This document shows positions 9,825-47,800 of a stretch of DNA of 47,800 nucleotides, in pieces. The notes beneath the pieces are model-generated. The model searched no databases. It saw only the letters and a list, made by a program, of their open reading frames with translations, and was not told where the DNA came from. Every line of letters starts with the position of its first letter. Within the stretch, counting starts at the first letter, position 1. Origin of the DNA: a virus (Duplodnaviria; Heunggongvirae; Uroviricota; Caudoviricetes); the IMG/VR virus record IMGVR_UViG_2563366820_000002, positions 1-47,800 of that record; one strand, given 5' to 3'. The translations under genes were made by a program, and so were the position numbers.

Positions 9825-10274
9825 TCACTTAACCAATGATGCTGCATATTCGATAAGGTAAAGCTTTGGGGCCAGCCAAATTTTTAACCAAGTCATATTG
9901 GTTACTACACCAATAATAAAAATCCCCCACAGAGTCAAAACTCCAACCAATGGCATGATAAGAAGGTTAATATCTCCTTTGCTATCCCAAACCATTGTCG
10001 GCCTGTATTTGGGATTTCCCCTCTCCCATGAGTATCCTTCATCACCGATTTTACCTGTCTCAACTCTTTGGCACTGCTTCTTCATAAACCAGAAAACCAG
10101 TGGGATTGTTAGAATGGCTATTAATGTTTTAATCAGACTGTCAACCATATTCCATAGCAGCAACTGATGAACAACATCAGGAATCTGCGCTTGGCTGAAT
10201 GAAACAGCCGCGTCTATTCCATTGCTGGCTTTTTGCAGTAGTTCTACGAGAATCTTGTTTGCTTGTTCTTCCAT
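9825..10274 (-). CDS. Membrane protein, 149 aa (possible superinfection-exclusion type)
   Basis: ATG at 10274 with AGGGGA RBS; hydrophobic helices (LIAILTIPLVFWF, LLIMPLVGVLTLWGIFIIGVV); own terminator downstream. Confidence 0.7.
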   Translation of the reverse strand: MEEQANKILVELLQKASNGIDAAVSFSQAQIPDVVHQLLLWNMVDSLIKTLIAILTIPLVFWFMKKQCQRVETGKIGDEGYSWERGNPKYRPTMVWDSKGDINLLIMPLVGVLTLWGIFIIGVVTNMTWLKIWLAPKLYLIEYAASLVK

Positions 10275-19831: not shown

Positions 19832-20265
19832 GCAGAGTAACCGCGATTATCTCCGCTCTGGTTATCTGCATCGTCGTCTGCCTGTCATGGGGTGTTAATC
19901 ATTACCGTGATAACGCCATCGCCTACAAAGAACAGCGCGATAAGGCCGCATTCATTATCGCTGACATGCAGAAACGTCAACGCAATGTAGCAGAACTCGA
20001 CGCCAGATATACAAAGGAGCTTGCTGATGCTAACGCGACTATCGAAAGTCTCCGTGCTGATGTTTCTGCTGGTCGTAAGCGCATGCAAGTCGCCGCCACC
20101 TGTGCAAAGTCAACGACCGGAGCCAGCAGCATGGGCGATGGAGAAAGCCCAAGACTTACAGCAGATGCTGAACTCAATTATTACCGTCTACGAAGTGGAA
20201 TCGACAGGATAACCGCGCAGGTTAACTACCTGCAGGAGTACATCAGGACGCAATGCCTGAAATAA
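19828..20265 (+). CDS. Rz: i-spanin Rz
   Basis: N-terminal TM segment [21 protein letters not shown] as in lambda Rz; C-terminal half diverges from lambda. Confidence 0.85.
20021..20212 (+). CDS. Rz1: o-spanin Rz1 lipoprotein, embedded in the +1 frame of Rz
   Basis: Lipobox LVVSAC followed by proline-rich [11 protein letters not shown]; exact start among the upstream Met codons is uncertain. Confidence 0.7.
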
Positions 20266-20295
20266 TTTTTTGCAAATCACAAAGTCAATTTAATG

Positions 20296-20320
20296 AGCCT
20301 CGCGATGCGGGGCTTTTTTA
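20296..20320 (+). terminator. Intrinsic terminator after the lysis cassette
   Basis: Hairpin AGCCTCGC-GAT-GCGGGGCT followed by TTTTTTAT. Confidence 0.65.
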
Positions 20321-20462
20321 TGTCCGCAGTAAACGCGCATCTCACGCGCATATTAACGAGAGCCTTTCAGTAAGCGGGCCTGAGAATTGCCGTTATAGGT
20401 GGCGACCTCTCTCGGGCGGCTTTTCTGTGAGACAGGCTCACTTTCTAAAAGGTAAAGACGCT

Positions 20463-20951
20463 ATGAACCAATTAGAAGAAAAGCTTCAAAGAATGATTTC
20501 CTTATACAAGGAAGATAGCTGCCAAAAAGTTCCTGAAAACATCGCAGAGTTAATGAAATTGGCAAGTGAATTTTCTGGCATGCTTAAGTCGTCAGGTGTT
20601 CGGTCAGCGTTCTTTGTTGAAATGCTGATGCACGGCGGACTTATGGCAACAATGAGACGTGTAATGGAAGACCAGAGAAAAGAACCTCCTCAGGTATACG
20701 TTTTGTCATCGAAGAAAACTGGGCTAACCAAAATTGGGTATTCATCCAACATTCCACAACGCATCAAATCGCTTGGCAACTCTGGACCAGACTGTTTGAA
20801 GCTTGAGTGCCTGATCCCTGGTGGAAGAGAAACTGAAAACATGCTTCATCGCAAATTTGCCGCAAAGAGAAAGCACGGTGAATGGTTCGCCCTGTCCAAG
20901 GATGACATTGAGGGGTTGAAATCTGTAGCGCTTACTTCTGATGGCTATTAA
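20463..20951 (+). CDS. GIY-YIG-like (T5orf172-type) domain protein with an unassigned N-terminal domain, 162 aa
   Basis: C-terminal VYVLSS-KTGLTKIGYSSNIPQRIKSL...ETENMLHRKF...GEWF pattern; ATG at 20463 preferred over the track start 20253, which spans the terminator hairpin. Confidence 0.65.
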   Translation: MNQLEEKLQRMISLYKEDSCQKVPENIAELMKLASEFSGMLKSSGVRSAFFVEMLMHGGLMATMRRVMEDQRKEPPQVYVLSSKKTGLTKIGYSSNIPQRIKSLGNSGPDCLKLECLIPGGRETENMLHRKFAAKRKHGEWFALSKDDIEGLKSVALTSDGY

Positions 20952-36024: not shown

Positions 36025-36483
36025 TTAAAAGTTGCGATGGGATGGCGAAGCAATGGCAAAACCTCCAAGTGTTACCATTTCATCTCTAAAAGCCTTATCT
36101 TTAGCTGCTTTTTGTGCACCTGACATGATGTTCTTGTGAAAATAGTCTCTGAACTTGGCCTCTTCCTCGGATACATCTGGAGTAAAACGACCATAGTCAG
36201 ATTCAATCTTATCTAAAATTATGCTTGCAGTATTGGGCTTGAAGATTGAGTATGACAAAAAAACTCGACAATCATTCGCTTGTTCCATGACGAATTTTTT
36301 CATGTCATCAGGGTTAAATCTTCTTGATTCAGAAGCGTATTTTTGAGCCAACCCAATGCAAGCAATCTCAGCTTCCTTGGTGACATGATCTGGTGGAATA
36401 AGTCCTTCTTCTCCATGCGCCGAAGCTAAGAATAGCCAAGAGGAGATAATAGGAATGGCATAACGAATATATGATTTCTTCAT
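36025..36483 (-). CDS. Secreted/periplasmic protein with signal peptide, 152 aa
   Basis: N-terminal MKKSYIRYAIPIISSWLFLASAHG signal-like sequence; co-oriented with the upstream repressor gene. Confidence 0.65.
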   Translation of the reverse strand: MKKSYIRYAIPIISSWLFLASAHGEEGLIPPDHVTKEAEIACIGLAQKYASESRRFNPDDMKKFVMEQANDCRVFLSYSIFKPNTASIILDKIESDYGRFTPDVSEEEAKFRDYFHKNIMSGAQKAAKDKAFRDEMVTLGGFAIASPSHRNF

Positions 36484-36619
36484 ATTATAATCCTTGTGCT
36501 GTTTTTATGATTCTACCCATTAAATGAAGAAAAAACACGCAACACTCAGTTTTGTCCAGGATAGCATGTGACTCAAGGGAGCGCAGCCTACCTGGGTTGG
36601 TTAAGTGATTTCGTGCTTA

Positions 36620-37480
36620 TTACTTGTCTGGTGAGTGTTTATAACGGGCCTGTGAAAGGCTGTAGTTAGCTAACTTCTCAAGGCGCTCAGCAATTTCATC
36701 TAGTCGCTTAAGACGTTCGTCAAAGGGTGTATTCTTGTCAAATTTTGTATTTGACCAAAAATCTTGGCTAACCTTGTGTGCTTCCTCAACCAGTTTCTCT
36801 ACTTCGCTATGCGGCATTGGAGAGATAAGTTTTTCCCTCTTGATTCGAAACTGAGAATGAATAGCCACGCCAACAACCTCGATAAAATCAGGTTGGAACA
36901 TGGGGTATAAAGGGTTAAGTGACTTAAGGTAGATTTGGCGCTGATCCAGTATAAACTGCTTAAATACAGCCTCAGAATTATCATTTAGCACACACATCAC
37001 AAAGTCACCAGAAACAGCCTTTAGCGATGAATCGAAAGTTACGATTGTTCCAGGGGGAAAGCTAATCCCATCACCGGAAGACATGGATTCACCTTGTATT
37101 TCAACGGCAAAACAGTATTCATTGGCTTCAGGAGGGGCTGGAATAAAGTCCTTTATAGCAGCAGTCTTTAGTAAATCATCTAGCGATTCAAATCTTGCCT
37201 GTACGTGTGTTAGCACAGGAATCTCGCGCACAGTAACAGTTCTCTTGACACTGCTAACGTCAGGGCCATCTCCTTTCCCTTGCGTAAGCCATTCAGTGGT
37301 AGTTCCCAATGCAGCTGCAAGGTTTTGAAGTGCCTTTTCTCTTGGTTTAGCTTCCCCACCCTCGTAAGCAGCGATCTGTCTGGGTACCACGCCTACTTTC
37401 TTGGCAAGCTCGGATTGAGTCAAACCGATGGAGTTGCGCGCTATGGCAACTCGTTTAGAAAAAGAATCATCAAAACTCAT
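36620..37480 (-). CDS. LexA/CI-type repressor: HTH-XRE plus S24 autopeptidase domain with a ~70-aa C-terminal extension
   Basis: N-terminal IGLTQSELAKKVGVVPRQIAAYEGG helix-turn-helix; GESM serine motif and FKQF lysine motif; 286 aa. Confidence 0.8.
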   Translation of the reverse strand: MSFDDSFSKRVAIARNSIGLTQSELAKKVGVVPRQIAAYEGGEAKPREKALQNLAAALGTTTEWLTQGKGDGPDVSSVKRTVTVREIPVLTHVQARFESLDDLLKTAAIKDFIPAPPEANEYCFAVEIQGESMSSGDGISFPPGTIVTFDSSLKAVSGDFVMCVLNDNSEAVFKQFILDQRQIYLKSLNPLYPMFQPDFIEVVGVAIHSQFRIKREKLISPMPHSEVEKLVEEAHKVSQDFWSNTKFDKNTPFDERLKRLDEIAERLEKLANYSLSQARYKHSPDK

Positions 37481-37577: not shown

Positions 37578-37751
37578 ATGGAACAGAAGAAAAAAGATAT
37601 CAAGCCTATCTCCTACCGCCCAAGTGCTGAGGTGCGTGAGTTTTTGGAAGGCAACGCAGCTAAAAGCTACCGCTCAATTCAGGGAATGCTTGATTTCTTT
37701 ATGGCAAGAGTGATGGAGATGGAGAGGAAAGGTGAAATTGTCATTCATTAA
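37578..37751 (+). CDS. Small regulator, 57 aa, possible ribbon-helix-helix (Arc/Mnt-like)
   Basis: ATG with GAGGTG RBS, divergent from the repressor; an RHH fold is an inference from the pattern. Confidence 0.5.
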   Translation: MEQKKKDIKPISYRPSAEVREFLEGNAAKSYRSIQGMLDFFMARVMEMERKGEIVIH

Positions 37752-37823
37752 AAACGTTGAAGCCCAACGGTGGCTAGACCGTCTGGGCTTCGGTATCAAC
37801 AAATCGGCTTAGGAAATATTGAC

Positions 37824-38702
37824 ATGAAAAGTATAGCAAAGATACAAAACGATTTCACCATCTTCAAATTCGGCGACAGTGAAATCCGCGTCATCAACAA
37901 GTGCGGTGAGCCGTGGTTTGTAGCTAAAGATGTTTGTGATGCTTTAGCTTTGACTAACTCACGCAAGGCGCTTACTGCACTTGATGACGATGAAAAGGGA
38001 GTAACTTTAAGTTACACCCTTGGTGGTGAGCAGAATTTAAGCATTGTGAGCGAATCAGGTATGTATACATTGGTTTTGCGCTGCCGCGATGCCGTCAATA
38101 AAGGTTCAGTCCCGCACAAATTCCGCAAGTGGGTAACAGCAGAAGTTCTGCCTTCAATTCGCAAATATGGCGAGTATGTGAAAGGCAAGAAAACCACAGT
38201 TGAGGAAAGAACACCGCTACGCGATGCAGTAAACATGCTGGTAGGAAAGAAAGGACTTCGCTATGACGATGCATACAATATGGTTCATCAGCGTTTTGGT
38301 ATTGACAGCATTGATGAACTTTCAATTGAACAAATCCCGCTGGCCGTAGAGTACATCCACAGGGTGGTGCTTGAAGGTGAGTTCATTGGCAAGCAAGAGA
38401 AGAAAGCAAACGAGCTTTCTGCAAAAGAAGCAAACAGCCTTGTATGGTTATGGGATTATGCCAACCGCTCACAGGCATTATTCCGCGAACTGTATCCGGC
38501 ATTAAAACAAATTCAATCGAACTATTCCGGCAGATGCTACGACTACGGCCATGAGTTCTCGTATGTTATCGGAACGGCGAGAGACGTTTTAATCAACCAC
38601 ACACGAGATGTTGATATCAATGAGCCAGACGGACCAACAAATCTTTCTGCATGGATAAGGCTTAAGAATAAAGAATTGCCGCCTTCTGTTCATCTGTATT
38701 AA
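37824..38702 (+). CDS. Bro-N domain antirepressor-like protein
   Basis: N-terminus [43 protein letters not shown] typical of Bro-N; ATG at 37824 with AGGAAA RBS. Confidence 0.75.
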
Positions 38703-44482: not shown

Positions 44483-45382
44483 ATGAATCGTTCTGACTCA
44501 CCTAAAAAACAACCCAAGCCATTTGGGGTTAATGGACAGAGAGGGGCAATATTGCCAACCACCCCTGCAGGAGATAACTCAGCATCGTATGAACAGGGGT
44601 TTCCTCCAATAACAATGATCCTGAAATCTGCTGGCGGTTTGCCACCAAAAGGCCAGGATATGAACCAAATTTTATACGAACTTTCTGCTCTGGGTAGATG
44701 GTCGAGCACCGGGGCGCTGAATACTTTTGATTCTGAATTTGCTTCGGAGATTTCTGGATATCCGTCAGGGGCGATGCTCATCTCGAACGATGGGGAAAGA
44801 ATATTCATTAACACAACAGAAGGAAATCTATCTGATCCAAACAGCAATGGTGCCGGGTGGAAAGATGTTTTTTCATACCTTGGTTTAGGAGAAGCGGCGA
44901 AAAGGGATGTGGGCACGACAGTCGGAACCGTTGCCGCTGGTGATGATTTACGCATAACAGGAGCACTTCAAAAGGCAAATAATCTTTATGAGTTAACAAA
45001 TAAATCTGACGCAAGAGCTAATCTTGGGTTAGGAACCGTTGCAACAAAAAACGTGGGAAATAGTGCTGGGCAAATACCTGATATGTCTTACTGGTCTTCA
45101 CCGGCAGGCGGAATTAATTTCCCGAATGGGTTCCAGATGCGATTCGGGACTATCGCTGGTAATGGTGGAAAATTATTTTCTACGCCATTTACAAACCAGT
45201 GCTATGGAATTGTTTTCGGACAAACATATGCATCCAACTATTGGATATTCAGCCCAATGTACAGAGCGTCAGACCTCAGTAAAACAGGTTTTGCTTTTAT
45301 AAATAAGGCATGGTCTGGCGTTCCAGGGACAGCATCCCAGGATGCTGGTGAATCTGTTTTTTATCTTGCAGTAGGGTATTAA
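44483..45382 (+). CDS. Tail fibre protein
   Basis: 299 aa, Gly/Ser/Thr/Asn-rich, immediately upstream of a tail fibre assembly gene. Confidence 0.6.
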   Translation: MNRSDSPKKQPKPFGVNGQRGAILPTTPAGDNSASYEQGFPPITMILKSAGGLPPKGQDMNQILYELSALGRWSSTGALNTFDSEFASEISGYPSGAMLISNDGERIFINTTEGNLSDPNSNGAGWKDVFSYLGLGEAAKRDVGTTVGTVAAGDDLRITGALQKANNLYELTNKSDARANLGLGTVATKNVGNSAGQIPDMSYWSSPAGGINFPNGFQMRFGTIAGNGGKLFSTPFTNQCYGIVFGQTYASNYWIFSPMYRASDLSKTGFAFINKAWSGVPGTASQDAGESVFYLAVGY

Positions 45383-45383
45383 T

Positions 45384-45815
45384 ATGGAAATGGTTTATAG
45401 CGCCTCAAATAATAGTTTTTTCGCTAAAAATGATGTGGCGAAATATGAACAGGACGGATGGGAACTTGCTGATATTGTCGAAGTGACATATGACACTTAC
45501 CTGGAATTTATTGAAGACAGAACGTTGCAAGGGAAAGTACGCATCGCGGGTGATGATGGACATCCTGCCTGGGGGGATATGCCTCCACCGACACACGACG
45601 AACTTATTGCTGCCGCTGAACAAATTCGCCAGCAACTGCTGGCACATGCGGACGAAACTATGCTCGACTGGCGAACAGAACTGATGCTCGGTGAAATCAA
45701 CGACACCAACAAGGAGAAACTGTCGGCGTGGTTGGCATTTAAAAATGACGTTAAATCTATCAATGTCTCAACCGATCCAGAGCATGTGATATGGCCAACC
45801 TTTCCAGATGAATAG
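45384..45815 (+). CDS. Tail fibre assembly protein (Tfa chaperone)
   Basis: 143 aa following the fibre gene; Tfa-like sequence. Confidence 0.8.
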   Translation: MEMVYSASNNSFFAKNDVAKYEQDGWELADIVEVTYDTYLEFIEDRTLQGKVRIAGDDGHPAWGDMPPPTHDELIAAAEQIRQQLLAHADETMLDWRTELMLGEINDTNKEKLSAWLAFKNDVKSINVSTDPEHVIWPTFPDE

Positions 45816-45973
45816 CTAAATCAGGTTTGTCAAAAATACAATCATGCGATTGATATATGCACTAGGCAGTGGATGAATTATCCACTGCTATGGCCTCCTC
45901 AATAATGATTCTGCCGCAGGTATATTTATATTCAATGACAACGCAAATACTGTATAGTATACTTTTGTAAAGT

Positions 45974-46993
45974 ATGCAACATTCATTAGCAATGAAAAAC
46001 TGCGCAGGTAGTCATGAAATGAGAAAAATAAGTAATGTAATTTTTGATAGAGATCACACCATTGAACTAAAAGGCGTTGCTATTCTCCTTGTCATGCTTG
46101 GGCATGTAAATGTAATCCCGCACGCCGGGGCATATGGTGTTGCTCTATTCCTTATGCTGTCAGGCTTTGGCCTTGTGCAATCTTACATTAAATCAGGGTT
46201 GGATTCTTTTTTTTCAAAAAGGCTATCAAAAGTACTTGTTCCATACGCTATTATAACCATTGTTTGGATTATTGCTTTTGGACATCCAGCAATTACAAAT
46301 GATGACTTTTATCATTTAGCGATTACCATACTAGGCATTGATTTGAATGCCACTATAGATCCTAGTATGTGGTATATATCTTTTATAATAATATGGTATC
46401 TGGCTTTTTTTCTAATTTTTAGCGCTAATATCTCTATTAATATTAAAATAGCCTTCCTTTTCCTTTTTTCTGTATTGCTTTACAAAAACGCAGATATATT
46501 CCCTCCTCCAGCAGGTGCCGGACTATACGTTGCTGCATTTCCACTAGGTTCACTAATTGGAGTGGTGTATGAAAAAGTCAAAGGATATGCAATAGATAAA
46601 TGGATATTACTTTTGTTTGTCATAGTTTCTTTGGTGTCCTTAATTTTATCCCTTTATTTTTATAAAGGGATTGATGTTAGTTTTTTTGACTATGCAGCAA
46701 CAAATATAGCAAGCGCATTTCTTATAATTGGAATTACATCGATTCTTAGAGTTGCAAATATAAACATAACACCATTGAAATTTGTTGGCATACTATCTTA
46801 CGAGATGTATCTTATAGAATTCATGTTTTTGATGAAAGCATACCATTTATTATCGTTTATAAGTTCAGATGGGATAAAATCCGTCTTGTTTGTTGTAATT
46901 GTTTGTATTTTTGCATACGTATATAAATACGTACTTTCAATAGTTTTTAAAGCGCTCAGGAAGGCATTACCAAACTCAAAAATATATACTTAG
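45974..46993 (+). CDS. Acyltransferase-3 family integral membrane protein (putative surface-polysaccharide O-acetylase)
   Basis: Multi-pass hydrophobic protein with N-terminal ...RDHTIELKGVAILLVMLGH... motif; start among ATGs at 45974/45992/46019 uncertain. Confidence 0.75.
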   Translation: MQHSLAMKNCAGSHEMRKISNVIFDRDHTIELKGVAILLVMLGHVNVIPHAGAYGVALFLMLSGFGLVQSYIKSGLDSFFSKRLSKVLVPYAIITIVWIIAFGHPAITNDDFYHLAITILGIDLNATIDPSMWYISFIIIWYLAFFLIFSANISINIKIAFLFLFSVLLYKNADIFPPPAGAGLYVAAFPLGSLIGVVYEKVKGYAIDKWILLLFVIVSLVSLILSLYFYKGIDVSFFDYAATNIASAFLIIGITSILRVANINITPLKFVGILSYEMYLIEFMFLMKAYHLLSFISSDGIKSVLFVVIVCIFAYVYKYVLSIVFKALRKALPNSKIYT

Positions 46994-47371
46994 GTAGATC
47001 TATATATAGATAATGTCTACATACGGAGCAGGCTATCGTTGGATATTATGCTGGTAGCCTGTATCAATTCTACAACTCTACATGGCGAACTATCCTTAGC
47101 CAGGGATGTCATACGCATAGCGGATTATTCAAACACATCCTTAAGCACTCATGGCAGACCTTCTTTATCATCTTGTACTTGCACTGTTTCATGAATTTCA
47201 TTCATAGGAATTAACTTAACCTTTGCACCCAGAATGATTAGGAGGACACGTTTTGTTAGCTCATTAAAACCTAAGGTTTTTTCTGGTAAACCTGCAAAGG
47301 GTCTCATGATATAGACCGGTTCAGCAAAGATTCTTATCCTATTCCTTTGCTGATTTGATATAGAGCATTTA

Positions 47372-47391
47372 TACTGTGATTTTATCCAGTA
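47372..47391 (+). promoter_or_regulatory. SOS (LexA) box upstream of the UmuD'-like gene
   Basis: TACTGTGATTTTATCCAGTA: left half-site matches CTGT, right half-site CCAG deviates by one base from ACAG. Confidence 0.55.
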
Positions 47392-47410
47392 TTGATGACT
47401 GAGGTGCATC

Positions 47411-47800
47411 ATGGGATTCCCGAGTCCGGCTGCAGACTACGTTGAGCAACGCATATCGCTCGACGAGACGTTAATCAGCAAACCATCGGCAACGTACTTC
47501 ATGCGGTCAGGGAAAACGTACTGGCGAGAAGGCATCATGTACGGTGCTTTGCTCGTCGTTGACAGTTCACTGATGCCGTTTGATGGCTCGTTGCTGATTT
47601 GTTCAGTTGACAATGAGTTCAGAGTGAAGCGATACAAGCGCTCCCCTAAACCACATCTGATTAATCTTGAGACTGGAGCGGTAGAGGTGATACCAAAGCC
47701 GACCAGCCTGTTTGATGATGAGTCGCATTTTTTTGGGGTGATTACGTACATCATCAATGATGCGCGTTCCGGTGAGTTTGATGATTGCTCTGTGATGTAG
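47411..47800 (+). CDS. UmuD'-like protein (pre-truncated UmuD homologue, HumD-like)
   Basis: Begins MGFPSPAADYVEQRI, aligning to UmuD from the Cys24-Gly25 cleavage site onward; GAGGTG RBS; stop at the window end. Confidence 0.8.
   Translation: MGFPSPAADYVEQRISLDETLISKPSATYFMRSGKTYWREGIMYGALLVVDSSLMPFDGSLLICSVDNEFRVKRYKRSPKPHLINLETGAVEVIPKPTSLFDDESHFFGVITYIINDARSGEFDDCSVM

Follow-up and report, generated by a model that had tools for sequence, protein, structure and literature searches.

The DNA analysed here (the window) is a stretch of 47,800 nucleotides that represents an E. coli prophage at att-lambda. The features found in its right arm, near the right end of the prophage, are listed in Table 1. 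The sequence-only reading of this DNA had placed a multi-pass acyltransferase-3 (AT3) gene after the tail fibre assembly gene in this region, and this was borne out by the match to PF01757, by the structure model and by the gene context. The tail fibre assembly gene has 88.6% nucleotide identity with the gene preceding the AT3 homologue in the related locus L001. In other E. coli, e14/Mu-like invertible fibre segments share the C-terminal part of the tail fibre and the start of the next gene. On the far side of the AT3 gene, the dinI-like ORF has no Pfam match on its own but is 48% identical over 44 amino acids (E = 9e-9) to the DinI-family protein found 3' of the AT3 homologue of C. freundii, and humD scores 212.8 bits against the cut-off of 120 for its equivalog model. 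A search of positions 45700-47500 against Rfam (E <= 1) gave nothing.

Table 1. Features at the right end of the prophage (positions in the window).
Feature	Position	Strand	Description
Tail fibre gene	44483..45382	+	299 aa; receptor-binding module 5' of AT3 gene; phrog_1396 tail fiber protein, E = 9.4e-73
Tail fibre assembly protein gene	45384..45815	+	143 aa; PF02413 Caudo_TAP, E = 2.3e-22
Hairpin GCAGTGGAT-GAATT-ATCCACTGC	45866..45888	+	9-bp stem, 5-nt loop; between late (tail) operon and AT3 gene
Best sigma-70-like promoter candidate for AT3 gene	45935..45963	+	ATGACA-17-TATACT, 10/12; overlaps TACTGTATA (45948-45956); putative function
In-frame leader MKNCAGSHE	45992..46018	+	In relatives a separate mini-ORF with its stop just 5' of the AT3 start
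Standalone AT3 membrane protein gene	46019..46993	+	324 aa; GC 32.6%
Perfect 14-bp palindrome ATCTATATATAGAT	46998..47011		Chance feature
Decayed dinI-like ORF (context)	47149..47412	-	Convergent with AT3 gene
LexA-box-like site TACTGTGATTTTATCCAGTA	47371..47390		CTG-N10-CAG; between dinI remnant and humD; read from sequence
humD (context)	47411..47800	+	Pre-cleaved UmuD'-like; last gene of window; NF051876 HumD equivalog; phrog_811

The full open reading frame around the AT3 gene spans 45974-46993 on the plus strand and would encode 339 residues, and gene callers differ in the length that they assign to the product (324, 333 or 339 residues). The most likely start is the ATG that gives 324 residues. 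The leader in front of it is closed in relatives: in L001 and L002 the region reads ATG AAA AAC TGC GCA GGT AGT CGT TAA ATG, and in L010 and L018 it reads ATGAAACGTATCGGCTAA-GAA/TAA-ATG. A length of 324 residues, in agreement with a start at 46019, is annotated for database proteins named "acyltransferase family protein [Escherichia coli]", for example WP_052773589.1, which clusters with the present protein at an identity of 90% or more. The databases thus already contain the protein under a generic name, and it is an ordinary, uncharacterised example of a class with which temperate phages acetylate surface sugars and alter what other phages and antibodies recognise. Just past the 3' end of the gene, the palindrome that had been reported at 46997-47010 does exist as a perfect one, at the slightly different position given in Table 1. 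It is a chance feature: the window has three perfect 14-bp palindromes where 3.2 would be expected (local P = 0.20), the sequence forms no stable fold (z = +0.3), and relatives carry GTTTCTGATTGGT at this position, all of which speaks against a terminator or an operator.

The family assignment of the protein is clear. The ORF matches PF01757 with E = 8.7e-17 and 61.6 bits (cut-off 31), with residues 32-320 of the 339-residue frame aligned to profile positions 7-323 of 326, and it matches phrog_3333, "O-acetyltransferase", with E = 5.6e-14 and 52.9 bits. No NCBIfam model, no sequence in the PDB and no PADLOC entry matched the protein. The AT3 family is characterized by an R/K-X10-H motif in transmembrane helix 1 together with an RXXR motif (PMC9558356, PMC9833829). 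The first of these is intact as K18-X10-H29. The second, on the cytoplasmic face of helix 3, is R68-L-S-K71, with the second arginine conservatively replaced by lysine; position 71 is lysine or arginine in most relatives. In an alignment of 31 sequences, His29, Ser48, Gly49, Gly51 and Pro75 are invariant, while residue 18 (Lys or Arg), Arg68, Tyr76 and the block S260-Y-E-x-Y-L are conserved in at least 90%. The usual C-terminal histidine is a glutamate in most of this clade.

The AlphaFold2 model of the protein (pLDDT 92.1, pTM 0.90) contains ten long helices. Hydropathy and the positive-inside pattern of Lys and Arg residues fit a predicted topology with both termini in the cytoplasm; the long loop that joins helices 3 and 4 would lie in the periplasm, in line with the published description of Oac (PMC9833829). 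The predicted fold matches the TmAT type, that of the transmembrane acyltransferases HGSNAT and GWT1. These solved members of the superfamily are eukaryotic, are only 11-15% identical to the present protein and use different acceptors; a Foldseek search of the model against the PDB gave nothing meaningful and retrieved neither of them.

It is useful to compare the protein with characterized phage enzymes. Oac (OacA) of Shigella phage Sf6, an O-antigen rhamnose 2-O-acetylase, is also a standalone AT3 protein of about 330 residues with a ten-helix architecture, both termini inside and the long loop between helices 3 and 4. It shares PF01757 and phrog_3333 with the present protein, and its gene lies directly beside that for the receptor-binding tailspike, close to the end of the prophage. 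Oac of the E. coli O157 phage phiV10, which shares phrog_3333, is another phage-borne AT3-only protein in E. coli; its gene directly follows the tail-fibre gene and is annotated for host O-antigen acetylation and superinfection immunity. The comparison with Oac-type acetylases suggested in the sequence-only reading gives the same PHROG and a matching gene slot, with similarity at family level only. BLASTP against Sf6 Oac gave a non-significant E-value of 0.05 with the alignment out of register, and the hhalign probability was 50% for Sf6 Oac and 20% (E = 1.1e-3) for phiV10 Oac. With phrog_3333 the present protein scores 53 bits and Sf6 Oac 230 bits; the E-values of the two proven enzymes are 1.8e-54 and 5.8e-68, far from the value found here. 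The arginine motif is R-x-x-K here and R-x-R-R in Sf6 Oac, although hhalign places Arg68 and Lys71 opposite Oac Arg73 and Arg76 and aligns K18-X10-H29 to the His region of Oac TM1. The AT3 gene and the tail genes point in the same direction here, and in opposite directions in Sf6. At the level of sequence, the protein is best described as a distant outlier of the Oac-type enzymes, not an orthologue.

The Salmonella proteins OafA and OafB (GtrC family II) carry the same R/K-X10-H and RXXR motifs in their AT3 domains and are described by the same acyl-CoA pore model; OafB is linked to a prophage and affects phage interactions (PMC9558356). These are AT3-SGNH fusions of about 600-640 residues, whereas the present chain ends eight residues past helix 10. 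It does not belong to the fused class of OafA, OafB and OatA, in which a periplasmic SGNH domain follows an 11th helix: Pfam finds no SGNH domain in the protein, and no SGNH partner gene lies adjacent.

The composition and distribution of the gene are those of a moron. Its GC content contrasts with 45.7% for the window, its GC3 is 26%, and all orthologues have 27-36% GC within surroundings of 34-58%. Among related prophages it shows presence/absence polymorphism: in the same slot one prophage has an LbH acetyltransferase and another passes directly to a humD fragment, and both lack the AT3 gene. Megablast and blastn searches with 45816-47410 found no match in 5,426 complete E. coli genomes, which leaves no nucleotide-level empty-site comparison in that set. 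Megablast and tblastn (E <= 1e-5) found none in 50,697 deposited phage records, among them phiV10. A search of 1.84 billion representative proteins gives 43 clusters at E <= 1e-30.

The relatives examined are 31-84% identical and occur in prophages of E. coli, Citrobacter, Enterobacter, Aeromonas and Lysinibacillus, where they lie beside tail-fibre, tailspike or integrase genes; two more are chromosomal with no obvious phage genes nearby. One E. coli relative occupies the same slot, 3' of the tail-fibre assembly gene, at the ssrA end of its prophage. In C. freundii the gene follows a P22-type tailspike and is followed by dinI and humD, as here. A 40%-identical relative stands after the tail-fibre genes in a prophage of Lysinibacillus, a Gram-positive host, and in all four IMG/VR contigs examined the gene directly adjoins the tail-fibre assembly gene. 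None of the homologues examined is located in an O-antigen gene cluster.

The analysis shows the identity of the gene, its motifs, fold and foreign composition, the purifying selection on it and its recurrent linkage to phage receptor-binding genes; what follows on donor, acceptor, expression in the lysogen and phenotype is inferred. If the enzyme works as other family members do, it would take up acyl-CoA (most likely acetyl-CoA) from the cytoplasm into a central pore, where the basic residues Lys18, Arg68 and Lys71 would hold it. Close to the periplasmic face, the thioester would then meet the invariant His29, and its acyl group would be passed on to a hydroxyl group on a glycan of the envelope, most likely the repeat unit of the O-antigen. 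We consider it reasonably probable that the gene is a moron of a temperate E. coli phage that encodes a standalone transmembrane O-acyltransferase, and that acylation of the O-antigen would result in lysogenic conversion. The surface epitope would be altered, and phages that use this glycan, including the phage's own kind, would adsorb less well. If the enzyme is active, the changed surface chemistry of E. coli could shift serotyping, antibody recognition and susceptibility to phages, therapeutic ones included. Alleles of this family are rare and far removed from the Oac enzymes studied so far, so that knowledge of their substrate would add a data point on the poorly mapped relation of AT3 sequence to acceptor specificity; otherwise the gene is routine cargo of the lysogenic-conversion type.

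The main alternative, which is possible but clearly less probable, keeps the same chemistry and changes the acceptor to enterobacterial common antigen, capsule or colanic acid, LPS core or periplasmic glucans. WecH, for example, acts on enterobacterial common antigen and OpgC on periplasmic glucans. The distance of the clade from both phage Oac enzymes favours such an acceptor, as do the relatives in prophages of Gram-positive bacteria, in which O-antigen is absent, and of bacteria with unrelated O-antigens, and the location of every homologue examined outside O-antigen gene clusters. AT3-only proteins as a group also use many acceptors (PMC9558356). However, the phage-borne AT3-only enzymes with a proven substrate in that review all act on O-antigen (PMC9558356), and the slot beside receptor-binding genes mirrors these proven cases. 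A more speculative and rather doubtful proposal is that the proteins form a distinct small AT3-only clade that moves as a unit with the tail-fibre and fibre-assembly modules of temperate phages, whether the hosts are Gram-negative or Gram-positive. They might then be receptor-masking partners co-selected with a particular receptor-binding tip and act on a glycan other than classical O-antigen, and the conserved mini-ORF leader might control their translation.

The tail genes and the AT3 gene are separated by 203 nucleotides. The hairpin described in the sequence-only reading was confirmed at exactly the same position. As RNA it has a predicted stability of -18.2 kcal/mol (z = -3.4), which none of 200 shuffled sequences reached, and perfect 9-bp stems with loops of 3-8 nucleotides number four in the window against 1.3 expected (local probability 0.08). 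The stem also forms in L001-L004 (-22.1 kcal/mol), where a compensatory double change has replaced one A-T pair by G-C and one pair is G.U. It does not qualify as a canonical Rho-independent terminator: the stem is followed by TATGGCCTCC in place of a T-run, and a terminator scan does not call it. In C. freundii and E. asburiae the orthologous loci carry terminator-like hairpins at this point as well, unrelated to the present one. The hairpin is probably a terminator-like insulator that lacks a T-run. As such it would end or attenuate transcription of the tail operon, and the AT3 gene could then use its own AT-rich promoter in the lysogen.

In the AT-rich region noted earlier as promoter-like, the best sigma-70-like site is the candidate listed in Table 1, but such sites are not enriched overall (five found, 8.9 expected) and the candidate is poorly conserved in L001. 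The hexamer TATAGT (45953-45958) is kept in E. coli and Pantoea-like orthologues, in an ambiguous alignment register. Manual and MAFFT registers disagree on a conserved promoter motif across the orthologues, and no claim is made for one. Phase variation of the Dam/OxyR type, known from gtr operons, was also considered and rejected, as GATC is absent between 45775 and 46051, an interval that includes the promoter region. The T8 tract at 46207-46214 encodes a conserved Ser-Phe-Phe-Ser and shows no sign of variation.

It is improbable that expression depends mainly on lytic growth, by read-through of transcripts from the late tail operon, and that the product modifies receptors on the dying cell and its debris, sparing the progeny from re-adsorption, instead of acting in the lysogen. 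The shared orientation with the tail genes and the position 203 nucleotides 3' of them would permit this, the missing T-run may make termination leaky, and the promoter assignment is weak. Yet in IMG/VR relatives the AT3 gene and the tail-fibre assembly gene converge, which makes read-through impossible, and terminator-like hairpins flank the orthologues of C. freundii and E. asburiae on both sides. In a P2-like prophage of Aeromonas the relative lies between the C repressor and int genes with gaps of 45 nucleotides, which suggests co-transcription with the repressor-integrase block in the lysogen.

It is very unlikely that the gene is inert cargo that is unexpressed or encodes an inactive product. 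No terminator was found 3' of the gene in the window, the adjoining dinI is decayed and the gene is rare in E. coli. Against this, the reading frame is intact with every family motif kept, the structure model is confident, and dN/dS is 0.18 against an 85.5%-identical allele, which indicates purifying selection. At 90% identity the protein falls into a cluster of 35 sequences, and the most frequent of these is seen on 44 contigs.

The least probable alternative is SOS regulation through TACTGTATA, which occurs once, corresponds to the left half-site of the LexA consensus and falls in the promoter-like site. The half SOS box seen in the sequence-only reading is present as a sequence but is not a LexA site: its full 20-mer TACTGTATAGTATACTTTTG reads CTG-N10-TTT without the right-hand CAG, a LexA consensus scan gives no site in the window within three mismatches, and the motif is unconserved, being TACCGTATA in the closest relative with CTG changed to CCG in L001-L004. 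A complete LexA box lies instead 1.4 kb downstream, before humD. This box aligns with the C. freundii locus, where it is kept as TACTGTGTTTTTATCCGGTA, and it is a genuine LexA-box-like site that would serve humD and dinI.

The gene that follows the tail-fibre assembly gene is very probably a functional acyltransferase-3 (AT3) moron, that is, a cargo gene of the prophage. The sequence-only reading had placed an AT3 gene near the right end of the prophage, and both points hold: the open reading frame matches PF01757 over its full length, and the placement is reasonable because in related prophages of E. coli the final phage feature ahead of host genes is a humD fragment. The window closes on the last base of the humD stop codon, and attR lies beyond it. 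The window is a piece of E. coli chromosome. Over bases 1-2600 it is 99% identical to sequence present in thousands of E. coli genomes, namely ybhC and the genes for a tyrosine integrase and an excisionase, and the integrase carries the lambda arm-binding domain; the prophage is therefore located at the att-lambda site. Its early region is lambdoid (S24 repressor and CII), while the tail is of myovirus type (DUF3383 sheath, baseplate J, DUF2612 wedge), the tail fibre and its assembly protein being the last tail genes ahead of the AT3 gene. At positions 44900-45621 the DNA for the tail-fibre C-terminus and the initial 240 nt of the assembly gene share 89-97% identity with e14/Mu-like invertible tail-fibre segments of other E. 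coli, which occur there alongside a fragment of a recombinase (L093, L094). This homology ends within the assembly gene, forming a mosaic joint at ~45621.

Features around the AT3 gene at the right end of the window
Feature	Position	Strand	Remarks
Tail fibre, 299 aa	44483-45382	+	phrog_1396
Tail-fibre assembly protein	45384-45815	+	PF02413
Hairpin, 9-bp stem	45866-45888		as RNA -18.2 kcal/mol, z = -3.4
Best promoter-like match	45935-45963		10/12
Half SOS box TACTGTATA	45948-45956		present once
AT3 open reading frame	45974-46993	+	PF01757
Palindrome, 14 bp	46998-47011		perfect
Decayed dinI-like ORF	47149-47412	-	48% identity over 44 aa to DinI-family gene at the corresponding position of a C. 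freundii prophage
LexA-type box TACTGTGATTTTATCCAGTA	47371-47390		between dinI remnant and humD; complete CTG-N10-CAG, read from the sequence
humD	ends 47800	+	NF051876 equivalog, 212.8 bits

Three in-frame ATG codons (45974, 45992 and 46019) are candidate starts. The start was taken as 46019 because TAA directly precedes the third ATG in the nearest distinct allele (P0002, 84% amino acid identity, E. coli loci L001-L004), AGGT is found 9 nt upstream, and 324 aa is the annotated length in most NCBI entries. The stretch 45992-46018, fused in frame in the window, is a separate mini-ORF in L001 (MKNCAGSR-stop, L001 coordinates 9975-10001), and Enterobacter-type orthologues also have a separate one (MKRIG-stop, L010 and L018, about 25 nt upstream of the start). 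In several orthologues it ends at the AT3 start codon or 3 nt before, and, judged from its sequence, it could serve as a leader or in translational coupling.

An exhaustive HMMER search of 1.84 billion representative proteins matched 1,232 clusters at E <= 1e-3, 410 at E <= 1e-10 and 43 at E <= 1e-30, nearly all of 300-360 aa; by sequence, the clade of standalone AT3 proteins to which it belongs is a small one. An alignment of 31 sequences shows H29, S48, G49, G51, P75, W118, Y127, F174, G177 and G257 to be invariant, while conservation reaches 90% or more at K18, R68, Y76, D114 and S260-Y-E-x-Y-L. The R/K-X10-H motif corresponds to K18-X10-H29 and the RXXR region to K67-R68-L-S-K71, with lysine in place of the second arginine. 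These two motifs define AT3 function in Oac, OafA and OafB (PMC9558356, PMC9833829). The AlphaFold model from this alignment (pLDDT 92.1, pTM 0.90) has ten long helices. Basic residues on alternate loops fit a predicted N-in/C-in topology, and an acidic loop of 27 residues between helices 3 and 4 is predicted to be periplasmic; the same topology and periplasmic helix 3-4 loop are described in the literature for Oac. No SGNH domain was found in the protein, and no candidate partner gene is adjacent.

Such an AT3-only O-acyltransferase would take an acyl group, probably acetyl, from acyl-CoA in the cytoplasm and pass it through a pore to a periplasm-facing glycan, with K18, R68 and K71 binding the CoA phosphates and H29 being catalytic. 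We consider it rather probable that the protein modifies a surface glycan with a consequence for phage interaction. The likeliest glycan would be the O-antigen, in which case lysogenic conversion and weaker adsorption of phages using it would result, but this specific assignment is tentative. The main alternative is another acceptor. A homology comparison with Oac-type O-antigen acetylases, as the sequence-only reading had suggested, was made with the proven enzymes of Shigella phage Sf6 and E. coli O157 phage phiV10. The protein shares the AT3 family with them and its motifs line up, but in phrog_3333 it is a distant outlier: the E-value is 5.6e-14 for the window protein versus 5.8e-68 and 1.8e-54 for the two Oac proteins, BLASTP against Sf6 Oac gives no significant match, and profile comparison reaches a probability of only 50% with Sf6 Oac and 20% with phiV10 Oac. 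From its sequence the protein is an AT3 member, apparently Oac-like in working, but it is no Oac orthologue, and the acceptor cannot be transferred by homology. None of the AT3 homologues examined is located in an O-antigen biosynthesis cluster.

The context of the relatives is the most informative evidence on the role of the gene. P0002 occupies the identical slot after the assembly gene, as the last gene before ssrA/smpB. In C. freundii (P0010, 57% identity) the gene directly follows a P22-type tailspike and precedes dinI, humD and host genes; in E. asburiae (P0012, 59%) it lies in a prophage remnant with an integrase and dinI and umuC fragments. The Lysinibacillus relative (P0020, 40%) is in a prophage after tail-fibre genes and before lysis genes. 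All four IMG/VR relatives (L022, L024, L026 and L027, 31-37%) adjoin a tail-fibre assembly gene, two of them in the P2 G/FI moron slot. The exceptions, from Clostridium (P0017, 40%) and a Pantoea-like genome (P0004, 59%), are chromosomal with no obvious phage genes. The proven genes have comparable positions, with Sf6 oac flanked by the tailspike gene and int, and phiV10 oac immediately behind the tail-fibre gene. This consistent link of the clade to tail-fibre modules, in temperate phages of Gram-negative and Gram-positive hosts, is of modest interest.

A second, improbable alternative is expression by read-through in the lytic phase. The hairpin after the assembly gene lies exactly where the sequence-only reading had put it, and is best read as a terminator-like insulator that closes the tail operon; it has no T-run and is thus possibly leaky. 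Against a first-order Markov simulation of the window, perfect 9-bp hairpins are mildly unusual (4 versus 1.3 expected, local P = 0.08). In L001-L004 a compensatory replacement of A-T by G-C and a single G.U pair, the latter workable on plus-strand RNA only, maintain the stem, which folds at -22.1 kcal/mol; with two sequence variants, this covariation lends the hairpin thin support. C. freundii has in the same place an unrelated terminator-like hairpin, AATGCAGGCGGAAATCGCCTGCATT, with a T-rich tail, and E. asburiae another unrelated one. In a P2-like Aeromonas prophage the relative (P0014, 53%) is found between the C repressor and int, separated by gaps of 45 nt; by analogy with P2 biology, this implies probable lysogenic co-transcription. 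The 14-bp palindrome is present one base from its claimed position; being at chance frequency in the same simulation (3 versus 3.2 expected, local P = 0.20), unconserved and without a fold, it was rejected as a functional element. No Rfam family matched the region around the gene.

A third alternative, that the gene is inert cargo, is improbable; it is far more likely a functional cargo gene acquired horizontally. An AT3 acyltransferase is a textbook type of phage cargo, and databases already list this one as "acyltransferase family protein [Escherichia coli]". Its GC content is 32.6% (GC3 26%) versus 45.7% for the window, and all orthologues show the same contrast with their surroundings. The dN/dS against the 85.5%-identical L001 allele is 0.18, slightly below the 0.23 of the neighbouring assembly gene. 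The gene is missing from related prophages whose baseplate genes are about 90% identical: E. coli STEC299 (L006 9549-10121, NZ_CP022279) carries in the slot, on the opposite strand, an LbH-type hexapeptide-repeat "serine acetyltransferase", so that unrelated acetyltransferase families share one moron slot, and the KCJ3K291 prophage has no slot gene, only the humD fragment and dacD directly. The window and P0002 alleles are absent from 5,426 complete E. coli genomes, 50,697 phage records and all Enterobacterales species representatives in GTDB; the gene occurs in draft E. coli assemblies, metagenomes and one IMG/VR prophage. In that near-identical prophage (L021) it differs by 2 nt. A P4-type integrase of another element (L021 7789-8946, minus strand) lies within 6 nt after humD there, and the chromosomal context thus differs from the att-lambda copy of the window. 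The small clade, far from the studied Oac enzymes and with a possible leader mini-ORF, is of modest interest.

SOS control through the half SOS box is the weakest alternative: the left half fits the LexA consensus, but the right half is CTTT in place of ACAG, relatives carry TACCGTATA at this position, and a complete LexA-type box is located elsewhere, upstream of humD. The motif is present as reported but is no LexA site, and its resemblance probably arises because it overlaps the -10 region of the highest-scoring promoter-like site. A search for the LexA consensus within 3 mismatches found no site in the window. The complete box is conserved at the C. freundii locus and lies 20 nt upstream of humD, whose product is a pre-cleaved UmuD'-like protein that starts at the UmuD cleavage-product position and has lost the SGDSM serine. 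No umuC-like partner gene is seen in the window, which stops with humD. The dinI-like ORF points away from humD and towards the AT3 gene; its Met start is replaced and its C-terminus has diverged, and L001-L003 retain a 46-aa remnant starting MFVELVY.

Within the tail gene block a two-gene insert of lower GC (about 40%) lies on the minus strand at 36025-37480. It encodes an HTH and S24 peptidase repressor-like protein of 286 aa, whose PADLOC matches to RmrA and capH are confined to the HTH, as well as a 152-aa ORF that matches no Pfam family. An ant/arc-like region with 96% identity to phage Kapi1 comes next, at 37750-38700. This could represent a second, immI-like immunity region or else a defence cassette. 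Just ahead of the packaging genes, a T5orf172/MUG113 (GIY-YIG-like) domain protein (20253-20951, plus strand) has a weak PADLOC PDC-S57 match (E = 1.5e-5).
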